NCBI GenBank assembly: GCA_046290465.1
Contig: JBKAGP010000001.1
Span: 2,720,001-2,784,000 of the forward strand
Origin: Planctomycetota bacterium
Lineage (GTDB): Bacteria > Planctomycetota > UBA1135 > UBA2386
Direction of reading: 5' to 3'
Length of the DNA stretch: 64,000 nucleotides
The translations under genes and the position numbers were made by a program. Under the pieces are notes generated by a model. The model did not search any database. It saw nothing but the letters and a program-made list of their open reading frames with translations, and was not told the DNA's origin. Each line of letters opens with the position of its first letter. Position 1 is the first letter of the stretch. Below are positions 16,195-47,904 of the stretch, piece after piece.

Positions 16195-16322
16195 ACAGCT
16201 GCGACCGGTCCTCGACCGCGGGCATCCGCCGGGTCCCGCGGGCTCGACGACCACGGCGTGCTCGCGAACGGCATCCTGACGACGGCTTCGGTGCAGCAAG
16301 CCGGCCCACGCCTCCGCTTACA

Positions 16323-16369
16323 TGCACTGTATCGCAGCATCCGAGCTGCGAATGATGCGATATCCTGCT
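16323..16369 (+). promoter_or_regulatory. Candidate BoxR/BzdR-type operator upstream of boxC
   Basis: TGCA-N6-CGCA (16323-16336) and TGCG-N6-TGCT (16356-16369); TATCGCAGCAT / ATGATGCGATA inverted repeat. Confidence 0.4.
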
Positions 16370-16435
16370 TGCGATCAAGAGCTGAGGATCCGACACTGTT
16401 TCCCCTCACTTTCAGGCTCTCAGATCGCTGGCCGC

Positions 16436-18073
16436 ATGACCGACTTCAACCGACACCCCGACACCTACCACCACTGGAAGCTCGAGTTCGACGGCGACGT
16501 CGCGCACCTGCGCATGAACGTCAACCCGGACCACCCCTTCCGTGACGGCTACGAACTCAAGCTCAACAGCTACGACCTGTCGGTCGACATGGAGCTGGCG
16601 GACGCGATCCAACGCCTGCGCTTCGAGCACCCCAACGTCAAGGCGCTGGTCGTCGGCAGCGGCCAGGAGCGCGCGTTCTGCGCGGGCGCGAACATCGTGA
16701 TGCTCAAGAGCAGCACGCACCCCTTCAAGGTGAACTTCTGCAAGTTCACCAACGAGACGCGCCTGAGCCTCGAGGACTACAGCCAGAACTCGGGCGTGCG
16801 TTCGGTGTGCGCGATCAACGCGGCGTGCGCCGGTGGCGGCTACGAGCTGGCGCTGGCCTGCGACGAGATCCACCTGGTCAACGACAACAACTCGGCCGTG
16901 TCGCTGCCCGAGGTGCCGCTGCTGGGCGTGCTGCCGGGCACCGGCGGCCTGACCCGCCTGGTCGACAAGCGCAAGATCCGCCGCGACCACGCCGACGTGT
17001 TCTGCACGATGGCCGAGGGCCTGCGCGGCAAGAAGGCGCTCAAGTGGAACTTCGTCGACGCGATCTGGCCGAAGTCGAAGTTCACCGACGCGATCGCCAA
17101 CCGCGCCAGCGAGATCGCCGGCGAGGCCAAGGACAAGGGTGCTGCCAAGGGCATCGAACTGAAGCCGATCGCCTATGAGAAGAGCGAAGAAGACGGCAAG
17201 ACCACGATGAAGTGGGAGCACGTCGAGGTCGTCGTCGAGCCGGGCCAGCGCCTGGCGCGCATCACGTTCACCGGCCCGATCGGCGACCAGCCGAAGGACG
17301 GCGCCGGCTTCGAGGCCGCGGGCTGCGACACCTGGGCGCTCAAGGCCTGGCGCGAGTTCGACGACGCGCTGCTGCAGCTGCGCTTCGACTACGAGGAGAT
17401 CGGCCTGGTCGTGCTCGAGACCCGCGGCGACCGCGGCGCGCTGGTCGAACTCGAGAAGACGCTCGACGCCAACCAGAACCACTGGCTCTGCAAGGAGATC
17501 CTGCTGCACATGGCGCGGGTCTGCCGCCGCTGGGACCTGATGGCGCGCTCGACCTACGCGCTGGTCGACGAGAAGGGCTGCGCCGCCGGCGCGTTCCTCG
17601 AGCTGATGATGGCCTGCGACCGCATCTACGCCAACGACGTCGACGAGGTCGAGTTCGTTGTCGGCCCGCTGAGCGACGGCGACCTGCCGATGAGCCACGG
17701 CCTCAGCCGCCTGCACAACCGCTTCCTGGCGACGCCCGAGCAGGGCGAGAAGCTCGCCAAGGAGCAGCCGACGCTGATCGCGCCCGAAGCCGACGAAGAA
17801 GGCCTCGTCACCTACCTGCTCGACCCGCTCGACTGGGAGGACGACGTGCGCATCGCGCTCGAGGAGCGGGTCTCGATGTCGCCCGATGCCCTCACCGGCA
17901 TGGAGGCCTCGCTCCGCTTCGGCGGCGCCGAGAACTGCGACAGCAAGATCTTCGGCCGCCTCAGCGCCTGGCAGAACTGGATCTTCACGCGTCCGAACGC
18001 CACCGGCGACGAAGGCGCACTCACCCGCTACGGCGCGCCCGAGGGCGCGCAGTTCGACTGGCGCCGCACCTAA
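16436..18073 (+). CDS. boxC: 2,3-epoxybenzoyl-CoA dihydrolase
   Basis: YELKLNSYDL, FCAGANI, KVNFCKFTNETR, EVPLLGVLPGTGG, SPDALTGMEASLRF, IFGRLSAWQNWIF.RPNA. Confidence 0.95.
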   Translation: MTDFNRHPDTYHHWKLEFDGDVAHLRMNVNPDHPFRDGYELKLNSYDLSVDMELADAIQRLRFEHPNVKALVVGSGQERAFCAGANIVMLKSSTHPFKVNFCKFTNETRLSLEDYSQNSGVRSVCAINAACAGGGYELALACDEIHLVNDNNSAVSLPEVPLLGVLPGTGGLTRLVDKRKIRRDHADVFCTMAEGLRGKKALKWNFVDAIWPKSKFTDAIANRASEIAGEAKDKGAAKGIELKPIAYEKSEEDGKTTMKWEHVEVVVEPGQRLARITFTGPIGDQPKDGAGFEAAGCDTWALKAWREFDDALLQLRFDYEEIGLVVLETRGDRGALVELEKTLDANQNHWLCKEILLHMARVCRRWDLMARSTYALVDEKGCAAGAFLELMMACDRIYANDVDEVEFVVGPLSDGDLPMSHGLSRLHNRFLATPEQGEKLAKEQPTLIAPEADEEGLVTYLLDPLDWEDDVRIALEERVSMSPDALTGMEASLRFGGAENCDSKIFGRLSAWQNWIFTRPNATGDEGALTRYGAPEGAQFDWRRT

Positions 18074-18150
18074 CGGCCCGGACGCCAACACCCAACCGAT
18101 CACCTTTCCCTGAGGGGCATCCTTTCCTCACGGATTTCCAAGGCAACCTG

Positions 18151-19569
18151 ATGAGCAGCGTCGACCTCGAAGCAAAGATCCCGAACAACGTCGGACTCCG
18201 CGACAACAAGCGCCTGATGATGGCGCTCGAAAAGTGGCAGCCGAAGTTCCTCGACTGGTGGAAGACTGTCGGCCCGACGGACTTCAACGAGGACCAGATC
18301 TACCTGCGCACCGCCGTCGGCGTCGGCAAGGGCGGCTGGGCGCACTTCGACTACGTGAAGATGCCGGACTACCGCTGGGGCATCTTCCTCGCGGACGGGC
18401 CGGACGATCGCAAGATCCACTTCGGTGACAACATGGGCAGCGACGCCTGGCAGACCGTGCCGGGTGAGTTCCGCAACCGCCTGCGTCGCCTGATCGTCAC
18501 GCAGGGCGACACCGAGCCGGCGTCGGTCGAGCAGCAGCGCATGCTGGGCCACACCTGCCCGTCGCTCTACGACCTTCGCTCGCTGTTCCAGGTCAACGTC
18601 GAGGAAGGCCGCCACCTGTGGGCGATGGTCTACCTGCTGCAGACCTACTTCGGTGCCGACGGCCGCGACGAGGCCGAGGCGCTGCTCGAGCGCAACTCCG
18701 GCGACGTCGACAACCCGCGCATCCTCGAGGCGTTCAACTACCCGGTCACCAACTGGCTGGACTTCTTCTGCTTCACGGCCTTCATGGACCGGGACGGCAA
18801 GTACCAGCTGTCGTCGCTGGCCGAGTCGAGCTTCGACCCGCTGGCGCGTTCGACGCAGTTCATGCTGGCCGAGGAGGCCTACCACCTGCAGACCGGTGAG
18901 AACGGCGTCGGCCGCATCGTCAAGCGCACCGGTGAGCTGATGGCCGAGGGCAAGGACCCGCGCACCGAAGGCGCGATCCCGCTCGACATGATCCAGCGCT
19001 ACTGCAACTTCTGGTTCACCGGCTCGATGGACCTGTTCGGCGGCGAGGACTCGACCAACGCCGCCGAGGCGTTCGCGATGGGCCTGAAGGGCCGCTACCG
19101 CGAGTCGGACGGCATCTACAAGGACCCGAAGGCGCTCAACGCCGAGTACCGCCTGCAGGTGCCGACCGACGACGGCAAGCTCGAGGATAAGGACATCCCG
19201 CTGCGCCGCGCGATGAACGCGGTCCTGCTGGACGCCTACATCGCCGACTGCAGCCGCATCGTGCAGCGCTGGAACCGCGAGCTGAAGAAGCTCGGCGTCG
19301 ACCAGACGATCCAGTTGCCCGACCGCAAGTTCAACCGCCACCAGGGCGTCTACGCCGGCTACAAGTTCAACCCGCAGGGTGAGCTGATCGACGAGGCGAC
19401 CTGGACGCACGAGCACACCAAGTGGCTGCCGACGCAGGCGGACCGCGAGTACGTCGACTCCTGCATGGTCAAGGTCACCGAGCCCGGCAAGTTCGCGAAC
19501 TACATCGCGCCGCCGCAGAACGGCCCGAACAACCAGCCGATCGACTTCGAGTACGTCAAGTTCCACTAG
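18151..19569 (+). CDS. boxB: Benzoyl-CoA 2,3-epoxidase di-iron subunit
   Basis: KIPNNV, GWAHFDYVKMPDYRWGIF, QGDTEPASVEQQ, VNVEEGRHLWAM, DRDGKYQL, EEAYH. Confidence 0.95.
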   Translation: MSSVDLEAKIPNNVGLRDNKRLMMALEKWQPKFLDWWKTVGPTDFNEDQIYLRTAVGVGKGGWAHFDYVKMPDYRWGIFLADGPDDRKIHFGDNMGSDAWQTVPGEFRNRLRRLIVTQGDTEPASVEQQRMLGHTCPSLYDLRSLFQVNVEEGRHLWAMVYLLQTYFGADGRDEAEALLERNSGDVDNPRILEAFNYPVTNWLDFFCFTAFMDRDGKYQLSSLAESSFDPLARSTQFMLAEEAYHLQTGENGVGRIVKRTGELMAEGKDPRTEGAIPLDMIQRYCNFWFTGSMDLFGGEDSTNAAEAFAMGLKGRYRESDGIYKDPKALNAEYRLQVPTDDGKLEDKDIPLRRAMNAVLLDAYIADCSRIVQRWNRELKKLGVDQTIQLPDRKFNRHQGVYAGYKFNPQGELIDEATWTHEHTKWLPTQADREYVDSCMVKVTEPGKFANYIAPPQNGPNNQPIDFEYVKFH

Positions 19570-19737
19570 CCGGCTTGGCTCGCGGAGCGAGCCGGACCGA
19601 CTGGGTTCCACTTCGGATCGTGGCTACGTGGAGGCATCCTCCGCGAGGCCATCCGCAACCGGCCCGCTGCCGCGATCCTCGGCCTCGCTTCGCGAGGCGA
19701 TGCGCCTTCGGCGCTCCCCTGTTGCGCCTGAATCCTG

Positions 19738-20073
19738 ATGACGAATCGTCTTTGTTATGTCTGTGAAGGCGGCGACTGCACCGAGAAGGGCAGCGGCGAC
19801 CTGTTCGACAAGCTCCGCGACCTGGTCAAGCAGTTCGACCCGGACGAGGAGCGCATCAAGGTGCGCCGCTACCCGTGCTTCGGCGCGTGCGAGCAGGGCA
19901 TCAACGTGACGCTGTTCCCCGACAAGGTGTTCTACAGCACCGTCACCGAGAACGACCTCGCCGAGATCGTCGCGCACATCAAGGGCGAGGGCGAGGTCCC
20001 CGAACGCCTGACCGGCAAGTGCGAGCCGGACGTCGAGCAGATCATCTGGGACATGCTCGACAGTCCTTACTAG
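19738..20073 (+). CDS. Thioredoxin-like [2Fe-2S] ferredoxin
   Basis: VCEGGDC...PCFGACEQG.NV..FPD.VFY; ends DSPY. Confidence 0.8.
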   Translation: MTNRLCYVCEGGDCTEKGSGDLFDKLRDLVKQFDPDEERIKVRRYPCFGACEQGINVTLFPDKVFYSTVTENDLAEIVAHIKGEGEVPERLTGKCEPDVEQIIWDMLDSPY

Positions 20074-24727: not shown

Positions 24728-26380
24728 CTACTTGGCGCCGGTCAGCTCCTGCAGCAGCGCCTTCTCCTCGTAGATCTTGTCGAGGGCCTCGACCATGATC
24801 GCCGTGTGCACGCCGACGCAGCGGTTGACCTCTTCGTCGAACCAGTAGTTGCCCGGCAGCGACTCGATGTTGCCGTCGAACACCAGGCCGACGACCTTCG
24901 CGTTGCGGTCCAGGATCGGGCTACCCGAGTTGCCGCCGATGATGTCGCAGGTGCAGACGAAGTTGTACGGCGTGTTCCAGTCGAGCTTGCCCTTGGCGTC
25001 GAGCCACTGCTTGGGCAGATCGAACGGGTGCTCGTTGTCGAACGCGGCGTTGCGCTCGTAGAGGCCGTGCACGGTGGTCTTCGGCGAGACCTTGGTGGTG
25101 CCCGCTTCGTAGCCCTTGACGGTGCCGTAGGCCAGACGCAGCGTGAACGTCGCGTCGGGGTAGTTCTTGTCGCCGTAGACGTCGAAGCGCGCCTTGTTGA
25201 TCGTCGACTTGTGCTCGGCGACCGCCTCGGTGGCCGCCGCCATGTCGCGGCGCATGACCTGGAAGTTGACGCGCTCACCCGAGTGCTTGGCGACCAGCTT
25301 CTCCATCTCTTCCTTGATCGCGGCGAACGCGGCCTTGACCTCTTCCTTGCCCGACTGCTCGATCAGCTCTTCGTCGCGCGCCTTGATCAGCGCCATTCGA
25401 TCCTCGTCGAGCAGGCCGTTGAGGTGGCCGGTGAACGCCTTGAGGCTGTTCATCTGGCCGAAGTAGGTGTCGCGCAGGCGGAACGCCGCCTCTTCGCTCT
25501 GCTCCATGCGCTGCTTGATGACCTTGACGTTGTTGGTCAGCAGCGCGACGACCTGCGGGGTCCACAGGTCGCGGTGCATCACCATCTCGTCGTAGGTCAG
25601 CGAACGCTCGGTGCCGCCCGGGTGGCCCGACACGAACACGAGGTCGTCGGCCTTGGCGCCCTCGGTCTCGAACTGGAAGTACCACTTCGACGAGTCGATC
25701 GGCTTGCCGTCCTCGTAGACGCGGAAGAACGCGCAGTCGAGGCACCACCGCGGGTAGGTGAAGTTGTCGTAGTCACCGCCGTAGAACGCGACCTGCTTGG
25801 CGGGCGCGAACACCAGGCGCACGTCGTCGTAGACGTGGTAGACGTAGGCGCGGTACTGGTTGCCGTCGTAGAGCGACACCGGCTGCGCTTCGAGGTGCTT
25901 GCTCTCGTCGCTGAGGCCGTCGCAGATCTCGGTCAGCTTCGCCTCGACGTCGCCGTCCTCCTCGGCCTTGACCGCCATGATCTCGGCGGTGATGTCCTTG
26001 ACGTCGACGAGCTGGCGCAGCACCAGGTCGGTGCCGGGCACTTCCTTGCCGTAGAGGCGCGCGCTGAAGCCCGGCTCGACCCAGTCCTTCTCGGGCGTCG
26101 AGACCTTCTGGATGGTCTCGAGCGCGACGTGGTGGTTGGTCATGACCAGACCGTTCGGCGAGACGAACGAGCCCGAGCCGCCGGTGTCGAAGCGCACCGA
26201 GCCGAGGCGCACGTGGTCGAGCCACTCCTTGGTCGGCTCGAAGTCGTACTTCTCCTTCAGCTGCTTGAGCGGCAGGCTGTCGAACGGCCACATGCCCTCG
26301 TCGGGGCGGGTCGATTCGGGGAGGGTCGTGCCGAGCGCCAGAACGGCGAGGGCGAACGGGATGACAGGGGTGAATTGCAT
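24728..26380 (-). CDS. S46-family dipeptidyl peptidase (DPP7-like)
   Basis: Signal peptide, DEGMW, TNHHV, DNFTYPR, DIIGGNSGSP, FDGN. Confidence 0.92.
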   Translation of the reverse strand: MQFTPVIPFALAVLALGTTLPESTRPDEGMWPFDSLPLKQLKEKYDFEPTKEWLDHVRLGSVRFDTGGSGSFVSPNGLVMTNHHVALETIQKVSTPEKDWVEPGFSARLYGKEVPGTDLVLRQLVDVKDITAEIMAVKAEEDGDVEAKLTEICDGLSDESKHLEAQPVSLYDGNQYRAYVYHVYDDVRLVFAPAKQVAFYGGDYDNFTYPRWCLDCAFFRVYEDGKPIDSSKWYFQFETEGAKADDLVFVSGHPGGTERSLTYDEMVMHRDLWTPQVVALLTNNVKVIKQRMEQSEEAAFRLRDTYFGQMNSLKAFTGHLNGLLDEDRMALIKARDEELIEQSGKEEVKAAFAAIKEEMEKLVAKHSGERVNFQVMRRDMAAATEAVAEHKSTINKARFDVYGDKNYPDATFTLRLAYGTVKGYEAGTTKVSPKTTVHGLYERNAAFDNEHPFDLPKQWLDAKGKLDWNTPYNFVCTCDIIGGNSGSPILDRNAKVVGLVFDGNIESLPGNYWFDEEVNRCVGVHTAIMVEALDKIYEEKALLQELTGAK

Positions 26381-26591
26381 TGGAGTCCTCTACGTGCGCA
26401 GCCGGCTCGTGCGAGCTGCGGGGGGAGGATCATATGCAAACGGAGGCCGGGGTACGCGGTTCGTTCGGGGCACTTTGTGGCGGAGAGTTGGAGGATGAAC
26501 CAGGTACCGTACGGCAACCGTACGTGGAGCGGCCCGCTGCATCTTGCGATGGAGCGGGCCGCTTGTGGGGATGGATCGCGAGGGTGGGCGG

Positions 26592-27686
26592 CTACTTGTC
26601 GCCGCCGTCCTCGGTCATCTTGGCGACGAGGTCCTTGGCGATGCGGGTCGCCTCCTCGCCGTCGTGGCCGCGGTAGTGGATCTTGAACTCGCTGTCCAGG
26701 ATCACGACCGTCGGCCAGCCCTTGACCGCCCAGTCGGTGGAGATCTTCTCCGGCCGACCTTCGTTCTGGTTCTGGAAGCTGCGCCAGTTGAGCTTGTTCT
26801 CGGCGATGGCCTTCTTGGCGCGCTCGATCGTGCTGTCACTGTTGACACCGACCAGAGCGAACGGCTTGTCCTTCATCTCTTCCACGAGCGACCGCTCGTG
26901 CGGGTACATGGCCCGGCAAGGGCCTCACCAGTCGCCCCAGAAGTCGAGGAAGATGACCTTGCCCTTGTAGTCGCTCAGCTTGAACGCCACGCCGTCGAGG
27001 TCGACGCCCGCGATGTCGGGGGCCGTGCAGCCGATCCCGAACTTCTCGCGCTCGTCGATCGCGCCGTTGATCTGGCCGACGAGGCCCTTGTCCTCGACCT
27101 TCCCGGCGATCGCGAGCAGCTTGGCGCGCGCCGCCTGGTACTCGTCACCCTCGATGTCGGCCGAGGTGATCGTCTTCTGGTGCGTCGCGAACAACGCCCA
27201 ACCGCGAACGTCCACCGACTTGCTCTGCATGAGCTTCGCGCGGGCGTCCTTGGCGAACTCCGGCGACACGATGCGATCGAGGAACGGGATCATGCGACCC
27301 ATCGCCGCCAGCTTGGGGCTGTCGATGTGGTCCTTCAGCAGCACCTCGAGGGCCGGACGCGCCTTCTGCTGGTCGAGGTTCACGACCATCATCAGGAAGT
27401 CGATGGCCTCGTCCTTGCCGGCGTAGTCCTTCGCGTATTCCAGCGCCTTGTCGGCGACCGGACCGAAGTCGGGGCGCATGCGCATCGCGCGAACGGGCTT
27501 GCCGTCCTGCGGCTTCTGCGCCTGCTTCATCGAATCGCGCCACTCCTTGACCGCCTGCTGCTGCAGGTCATTGAGCTCCTGCATGCGCTCGGCGGCGCTC
27601 GGCGCCTTGGTGACGGGTTTGGCGGGCTCCTGCGCGGCGACCGTGCCGAGCAGCAGAACCCCCGCCAGGAGGGATAGGGTCTTCAT
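26592..27686 (-). CDS. Exported TlpA/ResA-like thiol-disulfide oxidoreductase, predicted selenoprotein (UGA at 26925-26927, W-U-G-P-C); 364 aa with read-through
   Basis: ORFs 26925..27686 and 26592..26909 are in one frame: ...KGKVIFLDFWGDW-TGA-GPCRAMYPHERSLV...VGVNSD...WPT; signal peptide; SECIS-like hairpin. Confidence 0.88.
26883..26900 (-). promoter_or_regulatory. Candidate bacterial SECIS of the TlpA-like gene
   Basis: mRNA CACGAGC-GGUC-GCUCGUG perfect stem starting 25 nt after the UGA. Confidence 0.6.
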
Positions 27687-27844
27687 GTGGGTATCTCCGA
27701 GAACGTGTTCGCGCCAACCGGGCGCGACCCGACCACTCTGGACAGACGGACCCCGCGGTGCAACTCCAGCGTGGCCGGCCGCCGCGCCGTGTTACAGGGA
27801 TGACAAGGCTGCGGCGGCACCGCGGTCCACCGTAGGATGACGCC

Positions 27845-28669
27845 GTGACCGTCCGCTCCCGTGTGCACCAGGTGCTCGAAGGCCACCACGAGCCGATCGG
27901 CAGCATCGTGCGCTGGCTGCTCGCCGCGCTGATCGTTGCCAACGTCTTCGCCGTGGTCATGGAGACCGTGCCGTCGTTCCGCGCCCGCCACGCGACGGCG
28001 CTGGCCAACTTCGAGGCGGCATCGCTGGCGGTGTTCTCGATCGAATACGGGCTGCGCATGTGGTCGGCCGGCGAACACGCGCGCTTCCAAGGCCTGCTCG
28101 GCCGCCTGCGCTGGATGTTCACGCTCGGCGCGATCATCGACCTGCTGGCGATCGTCCCGGCGGTGTTCGTCACCGACATGCGGCTGGTGCGGCTGCTGCG
28201 CCTGGCCCGCCTGATCCGCATCGCCAAGCTCGGCCGCTACTCGCTCGCCCTGCGCACGCTGCGGCACGTGATGTTCGCGCGGCTGCCCGACCTGGTGTCG
28301 CTGAGCTTCGTGCTGCTGATCCTGCTGGTGCTCAGCTCGTCGCTGATGTTCCACCTCGAACACGACGCGCAACCGGAGCAGTTCTCGAGCATCCCGGCGA
28401 CGATGTGGTGGGGCATCGTCACGCTGACCACGATCGGTTACGGCGACATGGCACCGATCACGGTCGAAGGCCGCCTGCTCGGCGCGGTCGTCGCGGTGCT
28501 CGGCATCGGCATGTTCGCGCTGCCGGCCGGCCTGCTCGGCGGTGCGTTCGTCGAGGAGCTTGGCAAGGCCCGCCGGCAGGCGCGCGAACAGCGCGCGGCG
28601 GCGGTGGCCGAAACCCCGACGCAGTGCCCCCACTGCAACCGGCCGCTGTCCGCGGACGCAACCCCGTGA
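27845..28669 (+). CDS. Voltage-gated potassium channel family protein
   Basis: S4 RLVRLLRLARLIRIAKLGR; pore TLTTIGYGD. Confidence 0.92.
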   Translation: MTVRSRVHQVLEGHHEPIGSIVRWLLAALIVANVFAVVMETVPSFRARHATALANFEAASLAVFSIEYGLRMWSAGEHARFQGLLGRLRWMFTLGAIIDLLAIVPAVFVTDMRLVRLLRLARLIRIAKLGRYSLALRTLRHVMFARLPDLVSLSFVLLILLVLSSSLMFHLEHDAQPEQFSSIPATMWWGIVTLTTIGYGDMAPITVEGRLLGAVVAVLGIGMFALPAGLLGGAFVEELGKARRQAREQRAAAVAETPTQCPHCNRPLSADATP

Positions 28670-30502: not shown

Positions 30503-30650
30503 GGGATCGTGCAGATGCCGGGATCGAGTCGTGCCGTTCGGACGACCAGTGGTCCGAACCGTCGCACGAGTTCGTCATGCCCCGGTCGCCACGGATGTTT
30601 CGGAAACACGTCCCTTTCCCCGCGGAAGCCCGCCGGCCTACCATCTCCGC

Positions 30651-31886
30651 GTGCCATCGCCTGCGCTGCTGCTCCCCGAACGATCCTCCACCGAGCCCGA
30701 GGGCCTGGCCGAATACCGCCAGCGCGGCGGCTACCAGGGCCTTTCCGCCGTCCAGCAGCGCGGTCCCGCGTGGCTGTGCGACGAGGTCGAGGCGTCGGGG
30801 CTGCGCGGGCGCGGTGGCGCGGCGTTCCCGACGATCCGCAAGTGGCGCCTGGCGGCGGATGCCGAGGGCGGCGAGAAGTACATCGTCGCCAATGGCGGCG
30901 AGCACGAGCCGGGCAGCAACAAGGACCGCCATCTGGTCGAACGGCATCCACACGCGGTGCTCGAGGGCCTGCTGTGTGCGGGCCTCGCGACCGGGGCGAG
31001 CAAGGGCTACCTGTACCTGATCGAGGACATGGATGGCCCGCGCAGGAGCGCCGAGATGGCGGTGCGCGAGGCGGAGCAAGCGGGGTTGCTGCCGTTTCCG
31101 GTCGAGATCCACCTCGGGCCGACGACCTACGTCGCCGGTGAGGAGACCGCGGCGCTCAACTCGATCGAGGGCCAGCCGGCCAAGCCTCGCAAGAAGCCGC
31201 CGTTCCCCGGCGAAGCGGGGCTGTTCGGCAAGCCGACGACGGTGAACAACACCGAGACGCTGGCGCACGTCGCGTGGATCGCGCGCGAGGGCAGCGCGCC
31301 GTTCGCCGCGATCGGCACCGCCGAGAGCAAGGGCACGCTGCTGTTCACGCTCGGCGACGAGGTGAACCGGCCCGGCGTCTACGAGTTGCCGTTCGGCGCC
31401 AGCTACCGCGACCTGATCGAGGGCTGCGGCGGCGGCGTCCGGGACGGCAAGGCGATCCGCGCGATCCTGCCGGCGATGTCGGCGCCGTTCCTGCACGCGA
31501 GCCTGCTCGACGTGCCGATCGGCTACGAGACGCTCGCCGCGCACGGCAGCGGCCCCGGCTGCGGCGGGGTGCGCATCGTGACCGAGGACACCGACGTGGT
31601 CGCGATGACGATCGAGATCGCCGAGTTCTTCATGAAGGAGCAGTGCGGCCAGTGCCCGCCGTGTCGCATGGAGACCAACCAGTTCGTGCACATCCTCAAG
31701 GCCGTGCAGGCCGGCAAGGGGCCGGGCTACGACGCCAAGCTGACCAGGCTGGCGACGTTCTCGCGCCGCAAGGGCCACTGCTCGTTGATCGAGATGGCGG
31801 CGGCTCCCGTGGTCAGCGCGCTGAGCGTGTTCGCCGACGACTTCGCCGCGGCCGCCGGCCCGGGCACGCCCGACGCCGACAGCTAG
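30651..31886 (+). CDS. Stand-alone NuoF-like FMN/[4Fe-4S] NAD(P)H oxidoreductase
   Basis: GLRGRGGAAFPT, EPGSNKDR, YVAGEETA, VNNTETLA, CGQCPPCR...C; no other nuo genes adjacent. Confidence 0.88.
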   Translation: MPSPALLLPERSSTEPEGLAEYRQRGGYQGLSAVQQRGPAWLCDEVEASGLRGRGGAAFPTIRKWRLAADAEGGEKYIVANGGEHEPGSNKDRHLVERHPHAVLEGLLCAGLATGASKGYLYLIEDMDGPRRSAEMAVREAEQAGLLPFPVEIHLGPTTYVAGEETAALNSIEGQPAKPRKKPPFPGEAGLFGKPTTVNNTETLAHVAWIAREGSAPFAAIGTAESKGTLLFTLGDEVNRPGVYELPFGASYRDLIEGCGGGVRDGKAIRAILPAMSAPFLHASLLDVPIGYETLAAHGSGPGCGGVRIVTEDTDVVAMTIEIAEFFMKEQCGQCPPCRMETNQFVHILKAVQAGKGPGYDAKLTRLATFSRRKGHCSLIEMAAAPVVSALSVFADDFAAAAGPGTPDADS

Positions 31887-47466: not shown

Positions 47467-47904
47467 ATGCTCGATACAGGCTCCCCGGCACCGGACTTCT
47501 CGGTGCTCGACGACGAAGGCAACACGCGCACGCTCGGTGAGTTCGCCGGCAAGACGCTCGTGCTGTGGTTCTACCCGAAGGCCGACACCCCCGGCTGAAC
47601 GATCGAAGGCAAGGGCTTCCGTGATCTGAAGCCCCAATTCGACGCCAAGAACGCGGTGATCTGCGGCGTCTCGTTCGACTCCGTCGAGGCGAACCACGCG
47701 TTCCGCGAGAAGTTCGACTTTCCCTACGCGCTGCTGTGCGACACCGACAAGCAGCTCGGCATCGCGTGCGGCGCGGCTGACGACGCGAGCGCGGGCTACC
47801 CCAAGCGCATCTCGATCGTGATCGGCCCCGACGGCAAGGTCGCGCAGGTCTACGGCGAGGTGAAGCCGGCCGAGCACCCGCAACAGGTGCTCGACGCGCT
47901 GTAG
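47467..47904 (+). CDS. bcp: BCP/PrxQ peroxiredoxin, predicted selenoprotein (UGA at 47596-47598 replaces the peroxidatic Cys); 145 aa
   Basis: MLDTGSPAPDFSVLDDEG...VLWFYPKADTPG-TGA-TIEGKGFRD...GVSFD...F.EKF.FPY.LL.D...KRIS.VIGPDG in one frame. Confidence 0.9.
47613..47634 (+). promoter_or_regulatory. Candidate bacterial SECIS of bcp
   Basis: GGGCUUC-CGUGAUCU-GAAGCCC stem-loop starting 15 nt after the UGA. Confidence 0.6.

Follow-up and report, generated by a model that had tools for sequence, protein, structure and literature searches.

An apparent stop codon within a thioredoxin-like gene

Does the TGA that separates two open reading frames at this locus of a planctomycete genome terminate a gene, or does it encode selenocysteine (Sec) in the active site of a redox enzyme? 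The window, the whole 64,000-nucleotide stretch of DNA analysed here, belongs to a genome (G000) of 6.59 Mb and 70% G+C. On its minus strand a 253-aa ORF (27686-26925) and a 105-aa ORF (26909-26592) form one frame with a TGA between them, as the initial annotation had proposed; the sequence that it had quoted, TTC TGG GGC GAC TGG TGA GGC CCT TGC, is present, with the TGA at 26927-26925. Read with TGA as Sec, the gene (26592-27686, minus strand) encodes 364 aa, as had also been predicted, with Sec254 (U254; 26925-26927) at the first position of the motif W-U-G-P-C and Cys257 (26916-26918) at the second, resolving position; Cys257 is invariant in 63/63 rows of alignment A1, the rows of which were chosen by motif. 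Upstream, a GGAG (27695-27698) that probably acts as a Shine-Dalgarno sequence lies 8 nt before the ATG. Downstream of the stop codon is a G+C-rich hairpin with no U tail (26528-26563, minus strand, by folding); a promoter and terminator scan made no call, this hairpin included.

The TGA falls within the matches to three Pfam families, Redoxin (residues 220-345), AhpC-TSA and Thioredoxin_8, and the two fragments stand as separate proteins in a public protein collection, the gene-caller split that had been expected. The initial annotation had also raised the possibility of a TGC or TGT at this codon in reads. Long contigs, not raw reads, from two other runs (X2 record 10 and X8 record 18) span the codon and keep the TGA; each has eight differences from the window, none of them at 26925-26927. 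Contigs from RNA libraries cover the gene partially and do not demonstrate transcription.

TGA or Cys in the homologues

Catalytic-domain matches were found in 51 of 61 related genomes, and the TGA lies inside 129 of the 133 matches. In a set of 53 loci (L026-L078), in which some genomes were fetched twice, TGA occupies the first motif position at 52 and TGC at one. Decay downstream of the TGA had been named as a warning sign; the relatives retain both the TGA and the downstream domain. Alignment with homologues, in which Cys or UGA had been expected at this column, gives Cys in 41 Cys forms, in paralogue L025 and in the PDB matches. The protein ends exactly at FWxxW in 109 of the best 120 homologues listed, which stand as UGA-ended fragments and represent mis-annotation at scale, and likewise in 135 of 144 further profile-library matches; because so many homologues end at exactly this point, the TGA is not a chance occurrence. 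The exact DNA pattern (TGA plus hairpin) occurs in at least 122 stretches, labelled mostly Planctomycetota and Verrucomicrobiota. A search of the ESM Atlas matched only hypothetical or AhpC-TSA-labelled Planctomycetota clusters.

Three further Sec paralogues in the same genome (TGA at C1 5113979 (+), 3673738 (+) and 2896767 (-)) have the same two hairpins after the UGA, described below, and a Cys paralogue near C1 316940 (+) is without either. The three Sec paralogues and both hairpins are absent from the initial annotation. Five full-length homologues (P0023, P0095, P0141, P0160 and P0266) have L, R or S at the first motif position, or lack it; these are possibly redox-inactive paralogues which retain the helical domain.

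The genome encodes the Sec machinery

The genome had been expected to carry the Sec machinery, and selA, selB and selD, all above cut-offs, are present together with tRNA-Sec; selD itself carries one TGA. Among the 61 related genomes selA is present in 60 and selB in 58, and co-occurrence gives little contrast because nearly every relative has the machinery. Of 50 genomes tested from the TGA-plus-hairpin pattern (50 of 80 listed loci), selA was found in 47 and not in three, which may be incomplete.

The TGA could alternatively be a true stop, separating two genes of which the second starts at M-Y-P-H-E-R, or marking a pseudogene or a sequencing error. An in-frame ATG does lie 15 nt after the TGA and is used by gene callers; however, the split would sever a thioredoxin fold at its active site, the column is always TGA with Cys in the remaining forms, a hairpin is linked to the UGA, and independent contigs agree on the TGA, which together make a stop very improbable. 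A changed genetic code, with UGA read as Trp or Cys, might account for the TGA at an apparently non-catalytic site of an AhpC-like frame (C1:4533750) but is still less credible, as tRNA-Sec is the sole UCA-anticodon tRNA among 59 genes called by ARAGORN and many ordinary genes of this genome terminate in TGA. From the sequence comparisons, the apparent stop in the active site of this probably exported redox enzyme almost certainly encodes Sec, and we have very little doubt that this is a real selenoprotein gene, of the UxxC TlpA-like kind that is already known.

A SECIS hairpin within the coding sequence

Folding and conservation place a SECIS hairpin at +25 to +42 after the UGA (26883-26900, minus strand). 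It has a 7-bp stem, a GGUC loop at 26893-26890, 31 nt from the UGA, and an energy of about -11.9 kcal/mol, and encodes H-E-R-S-L-V. The bSECIS model, as given in the accessible part of PMC13188914, has a loop of 3-9 nt, a stem of 4-16 bp, a G in the first two loop positions, a spacing of 16-37 nt and a minimum free energy of -7.5 or lower; compared by these criteria, the hairpin fits, with its 7-bp stem, G-first 4-nt loop and 31-nt spacing. The 91-nt region as a whole folds no better than shuffled sequences (z -0.35), and an Rfam search returned a single chance match (E 0.89). PMC13326102 gives 12.6% as the share of its entries that lack a canonical SECIS.

The 16-nt SECIS core is exact in all 42 Sec forms that were selected on the protein. 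In these forms codons +10 to +13 are invariant, six-codon Arg, Ser and Leu sites included, and adjacent invariant residues do vary at synonymous sites. Among 120 metagenome Sec forms, which were selected only up to the Cys codon, the core is exact in 87; of the 33 others, the majority retain the outer stem around a larger loop, and compensatory changes are seen in some. Only one of 41 Cys forms has the exact core. Since the codons are fixed in Sec forms and lost in Cys forms, the conservation of the H-E-R-S-L-V helix is mostly an RNA constraint and is not to be read as catalytic conservation. Two Cys forms, L077 and L263, retain the SECIS core and are likely to represent recent Sec-to-Cys changes.

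We also folded 30 other UGA candidates of this genome; 23 have a G-U loop at 17-29 nt, and the 31-nt spacing of the present family is the longest among those of the 34 folded candidates that show a G-U loop.

A probable second hairpin in the spacer

From +10 on, the mRNA is predicted to fold into two abutting hairpins (+10 to +24 and +25 to +42; -16.4 kcal/mol), where a single one is usual. The first of these, the spacer hairpin (26901-26915, minus strand), has in this gene a 4-bp stem and a 7-nt loop, and is indicated by folding and covariation. In Sec forms with Arg at codon +4, the third base of that codon is G in 194 of the 209 forms that have Pro (CCN) at codon +8, as against 9 of the 52 with Ala or Gly there, these Ala/Gly forms having been deliberately sought. 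Among 30 Ala forms GCC accompanies CGG in 6/6 and other Arg codons in 0/24, which corresponds to a shifted register. The mean spacer energy of 215 Sec forms is -3.93, as against -2.94 +/- 0.08 for codon permutations (0/200); the same holds in 84 unselected metagenome Sec forms (-3.83 vs -3.23 when permuted, 0/200). The 40 Cys forms show no folding excess (-1.98 vs -2.20, 165/200).

Covariation was scored in alignment A2, composed of this gene, 104 metagenome forms and 45 Ala/Gly forms, in which it was purposely enriched (2 of 151 omitted for size). The pair +12:+22 is GC in 81 rows, CG in 18, UG in 17 and something else in 33 (n = 149), and the overall score was reached by 0/500 shuffles and lies above all slid controls. 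The stem is of 3-6 bp and shifts its register between variants; 76% of cells are paired in one register. An alternative hairpin at +1 to +15, which appears in the minimum-energy fold, was rejected: 62% of its cells are paired, its covariation was matched by 101/500 shuffles, and on the account in the accessible parts of PMC8659212 and PMC4513850 it would sit within the ribosome's mRNA tunnel.

Relatedness among sequences was addressed by clustering the Ala/Gly forms on the identity of their flanks and matching each to the closest Pro form. At 70% identity, 15 pairs changed in the same direction, none in the opposite direction and nine were ties; the corresponding values at 80% were 25, 0 and 13. 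A tree-based test on 84-aa flanks retained just two supported independent pairs (P = 1) and is underpowered. RNAalifold returned no structure on 150 rows and both helices on 20 hand-picked rows. We consider the possibility that kinship and codon bias produce the signal as an artefact, with only the GGUC hairpin of any importance. The underpowered tree test, the blank RNAalifold result on 150 rows, the shortness of the stem and a weak association in Cys forms too (5/15 vs 0/17) would fit such an artefact; however, the Cys forms lack a folding excess, the clusters divide 15 to 0 (70% identity) and 25 to 0 (80%), Arg at this site is not commonly encoded by CGG in Cys forms (7/41), and the slid controls score lower, so that this explanation is rather improbable. 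The spacer hairpin appears as a synonymous covariation in Sec and not in Cys forms, and on this comparative evidence it is very probable that the spacer between the UGA and the SECIS hairpin forms a hairpin of its own.

What such a hairpin would do is less clear-cut. If it were folded while the UGA is decoded, about 9-10 unpaired nucleotides would separate the SECIS stem from the UGA, a distance close to that in E. coli fdhF (11 nt), and the loop would stand at an effective 16-17 nt in place of 31; this could well be its role. The main rival to such a role in effective spacing is an insulating one, in which the hairpin is real but prevents pairing between +8 to +12 (GCCG...) and the CGGU of the SECIS hairpin, and SelB tolerates the 31 nt. 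Positions +8 to +11 are indeed complementary in sequence to +31 to +34, the consensus model permits 16-37 nt, and other candidates in the genome have G-U loops at up to 29 nt. On the other side, the spacer hairpin begins where, in the accessible accounts of fdhF, the minimal SECIS begins (about 11 nt from the UGA), it abuts the SECIS stem with no linker, and the spacing in this gene family is the longest among those of the 34 folded candidates that show a G-U loop. We regard insulation as a serious but somewhat less probable reading, and shortening of the effective spacing as the preferred one. No description of a two-hairpin bacterial SECIS was found in the literature searched, key subscription papers lying outside its scope, and priority is not established.

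A probably exported protein with a helical domain and a TlpA/ResA fold

Residues 1-18 (27633-27686, minus strand) form a probable Sec-pathway signal peptide, judged by eye and from hydropathy (MK, a hydrophobic core, then V-A-A followed by Q); the N-terminus has no lipobox Cys and no twin Arg, and homologues have similar N-termini. An AlphaFold model built on 63 sequences (pLDDT 96, pTM 0.88) contains both of the domains that had been foreseen, a long helical N-terminal domain and a TlpA/ResA fold. The former is all-helical, with nine helices in an alpha-solenoid-like arrangement (about residues 31-216; 27039-27596, minus strand; pLDDT 96). Neither Pfam nor, at E <= 0.001, Foldseek yields a match for it, and its similarity to HEAT/ARM-type repeats is middling (best Z 9.0, rmsd 5.4, 176 aligned, from a single-sequence model with pLDDT 71). 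The TlpA/ResA-type thioredoxin domain (about residues 218-361; 26604-27035, minus strand) is supported by Pfam and by structural matches, the best of which are DsbE/ResA/TlpA-like (Z 20.0, rmsd 1.7, 136 aligned to 3gl3). W324-P325 (26712-26717, minus strand), which we take to be the cis-Pro loop of this fold, has an invariant P and a W conserved in at least 90% of A1.

Of the features of TlpA-like proteins (cd02966; PF08534, PF00578), the fold, UxxC (U254, C257) and the cis-Pro (P325) were found, with Pfam scores over cut-off. No NCBIfam model reaches its cut-off. The best is ResA (67.8 bits against a cut-off of 170), with TlpA at 51.3/230 and DsbE at 35.1/123, and the Sec redoxin models are likewise below (WAxxUGC_long 35.8/300, redoxin_TUGYCR 25.1/100, TsoB 20.3/805 bits). 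The Sec-peroxiredoxin motif PxxxTxxU is absent; the motif of this protein is F-W-G-D-W-U-G-P-C. In 2lrn CxxC is followed by a Glu to which Met260 aligns, and because Met260 replaces this Glu the chemistry may differ from that of the ResA/TlpA reductases.

This replacement bears on a further possibility, namely that the protein is an exported peroxidase, or a reductant of exported MsrA or peroxiredoxin (Prx) repair enzymes, and not a general disulfide reductase. Such a role would agree with the Met in place of Glu, with the similar Pfam scores for AhpC-TSA and Redoxin, with the MsrA of this genome (L229), in which a TGA stands in the place of the catalytic Cys and the N-terminus resembles that of a lipoprotein, and with the presence of pneumococcal Etrx proteins, which are linked to MsrAB, among the structural matches. 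We nevertheless think it the less likely reading: the motif is W-U-x-x-C and not the Prx motif P-x-x-x-T-x-x-U, ResA, DsbE and TlpA are the best structural matches, and no Msr or Prx gene is a neighbour at any of 23 loci. The best overall explanation of the sequence and model evidence is, very probably, an exported TlpA/ResA-like thiol-disulfide oxidoreductase with Sec as the attacking residue.

Gene neighbourhood and a DsbD with a predicted Sec

The downstream neighbour encodes an S46 peptidase of 550 aa (window 24728-26380, minus strand; present at 14 of 23 related loci), and the divergent neighbour a voltage-gated K+ channel-like protein (window 27845-28669, plus strand; 13 of 23). No redox-gene partner was found in the neighbourhood at the 23 loci, and no functional link is evident. 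Elsewhere in the window (16322-20073 and 30621-31886, both plus strand) we observed genes that we take to be boxC- and boxB-like, a small ferredoxin and a stand-alone NuoF-like gene (NuoF domains by Pfam).

DsbD and a TlpA-like protein are a textbook pair. The only DsbD_TM match in the genome lies in an 812-aa frame (G000:C1:4518361-4520799, plus strand; L449:433-2871) which has U-G-S-C in its C-terminal thioredoxin domain. Among relatives, 41 of 45 DsbD matches contain a TGA, its position having been checked in three genomes. Adjacency was examined in two genomes: in G036 the gene immediately after the Sec-DsbD is a Sec paralogue, and in G019 the gene immediately after DsbD is a paralogue with a degenerate motif. 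This adjacency, together with the UxxC of DsbD, supports a putative DsbD-to-TlpA chain. No description of a Sec-containing DsbD was found in the literature searched, key subscription papers lying outside its scope.

The following course of events is proposed for the thiol-disulfide oxidoreductase. SelB with Sec-tRNA would, we are nearly certain, bind the GGUC hairpin inside the gene, and the UGA would be read as Sec. The protein would in all likelihood then be exported and its signal cleaved. The Sec254 selenolate would attack a substrate disulfide, and Cys257 would resolve the mixed bond. Re-reduction would plausibly fall to the single DsbD, by way of its own U-G-S-C thioredoxin domain, and the helical domain may well bind a substrate or partner. 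Taken together, these elements would make up a system in which a widespread Planctomycetota/Verrucomicrobiota family uses a tandem-hairpin SECIS, with a conserved 15-nt spacer hairpin stacked on the SelB-binding hairpin and an effective spacing of 16-17 nt, along with an extracytoplasmic reducing chain that has Sec both in DsbD and in its acceptors; we put this combined picture forward tentatively.

Other candidate Sec sites in the genome

A second Sec candidate lies in the window at about 47480-47850 (plus strand; C1:2767479-2767847), in a BCP-type peroxiredoxin with P-K-A-D-T-P-G-U-T. A crude genome-wide UGA screen, picked by eye and yielding candidates rather than a count, gave 30 further TGA sites on C1, in selD, Prx/AhpC, TlpA-like, rhodanese, MsrA, VPGUxxT (two TGAs), deiodinase-like, AhpD, HMA, ArsC, zinc ribbon DG and thioredoxin-like proteins. 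The AhpC/TSA-like frame at C1:4533750 (minus strand), with a TGA that does not look catalytic, has no G-U loop hairpin and is perhaps a broken gene. Two coding-like frames with TGA at C1 148912 (+) and 5453431 (-), reading G-S-C-U-G and E-G-U-F-L-C respectively, have CGUGA-loop hairpins and no Pfam or NCBIfam match.

Also observed were FG-GAP repeat proteins that contain W-U-C (TGA at C1 3756620 (+) and 5536341 (-)); the TGA is present in 38 of 38 matches, from 33 of 61 genomes. This family is absent from the review table in the accessible part of PMC13188914, and FG-GAP candidates are included in Table S9 of PMC4807772.

Comparison with known systems

ResA, TlpA and DsbE/CcmG (PDB 4nmu, 3gl3, 4grf, 2f9s and 1jfu) share with this protein the fold, the W before the motif and the cis-Pro loop. 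It differs from them in having Sec for the first Cys, and Met at the position of the 2lrn Glu. ResA, TlpA and DsbE have a membrane anchor, in place of which this protein has a putative cleavable signal and the helical domain.

Selenoproteins of UxxC TlpA-like, Prx-like and redoxin types are predicted families in the accessible parts of PMC13188914 and PMC1088965. The UxxC TlpA-like members agree with the present gene in their TlpA-like fold, Sec at the first position, in-frame bSECIS and division by gene callers; it is set apart, by description, by its helical N-terminal domain of 190 aa without a Pfam match and by its two-hairpin signal. Of the same phylum are two split 'thiol-disulfide isomerase-like thioredoxin' candidates from planctomycete P1 (PMC4807772, Table S9), which also share the split annotation and a Cys in the closest match. 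They differ in that bSECISearch found no SECIS in them; this comparison is by description.

The protein is ordinary in kind; the interest lies in its RNA signal. The covarying spacer hairpin offers a direct and cheap test of how long SECIS spacings work, from which SECIS finders and designed Sec insertion could benefit; the tandem-hairpin reading, if true, would explain how far-spaced bacterial SECIS elements work. In the E. coli fdhF SECIS, as described in the accessible parts of PMC8659212 and PMC4513850, a 17-nt upper stem-loop lies 11 nt from the UGA, G23 and U24 are in the loop, and the lower part is unwound by the ribosome. Set against that description, both signals have G-U in the apical loop of a hairpin inside the coding sequence; however, the stem of the present hairpin starts 24 nt from the UGA, both a long lower stem and a bulged U are missing, and a separate small hairpin occupies the spacer. 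The kind of protein is already in print, and what is added here is this second small hairpin between the UGA and the SECIS.
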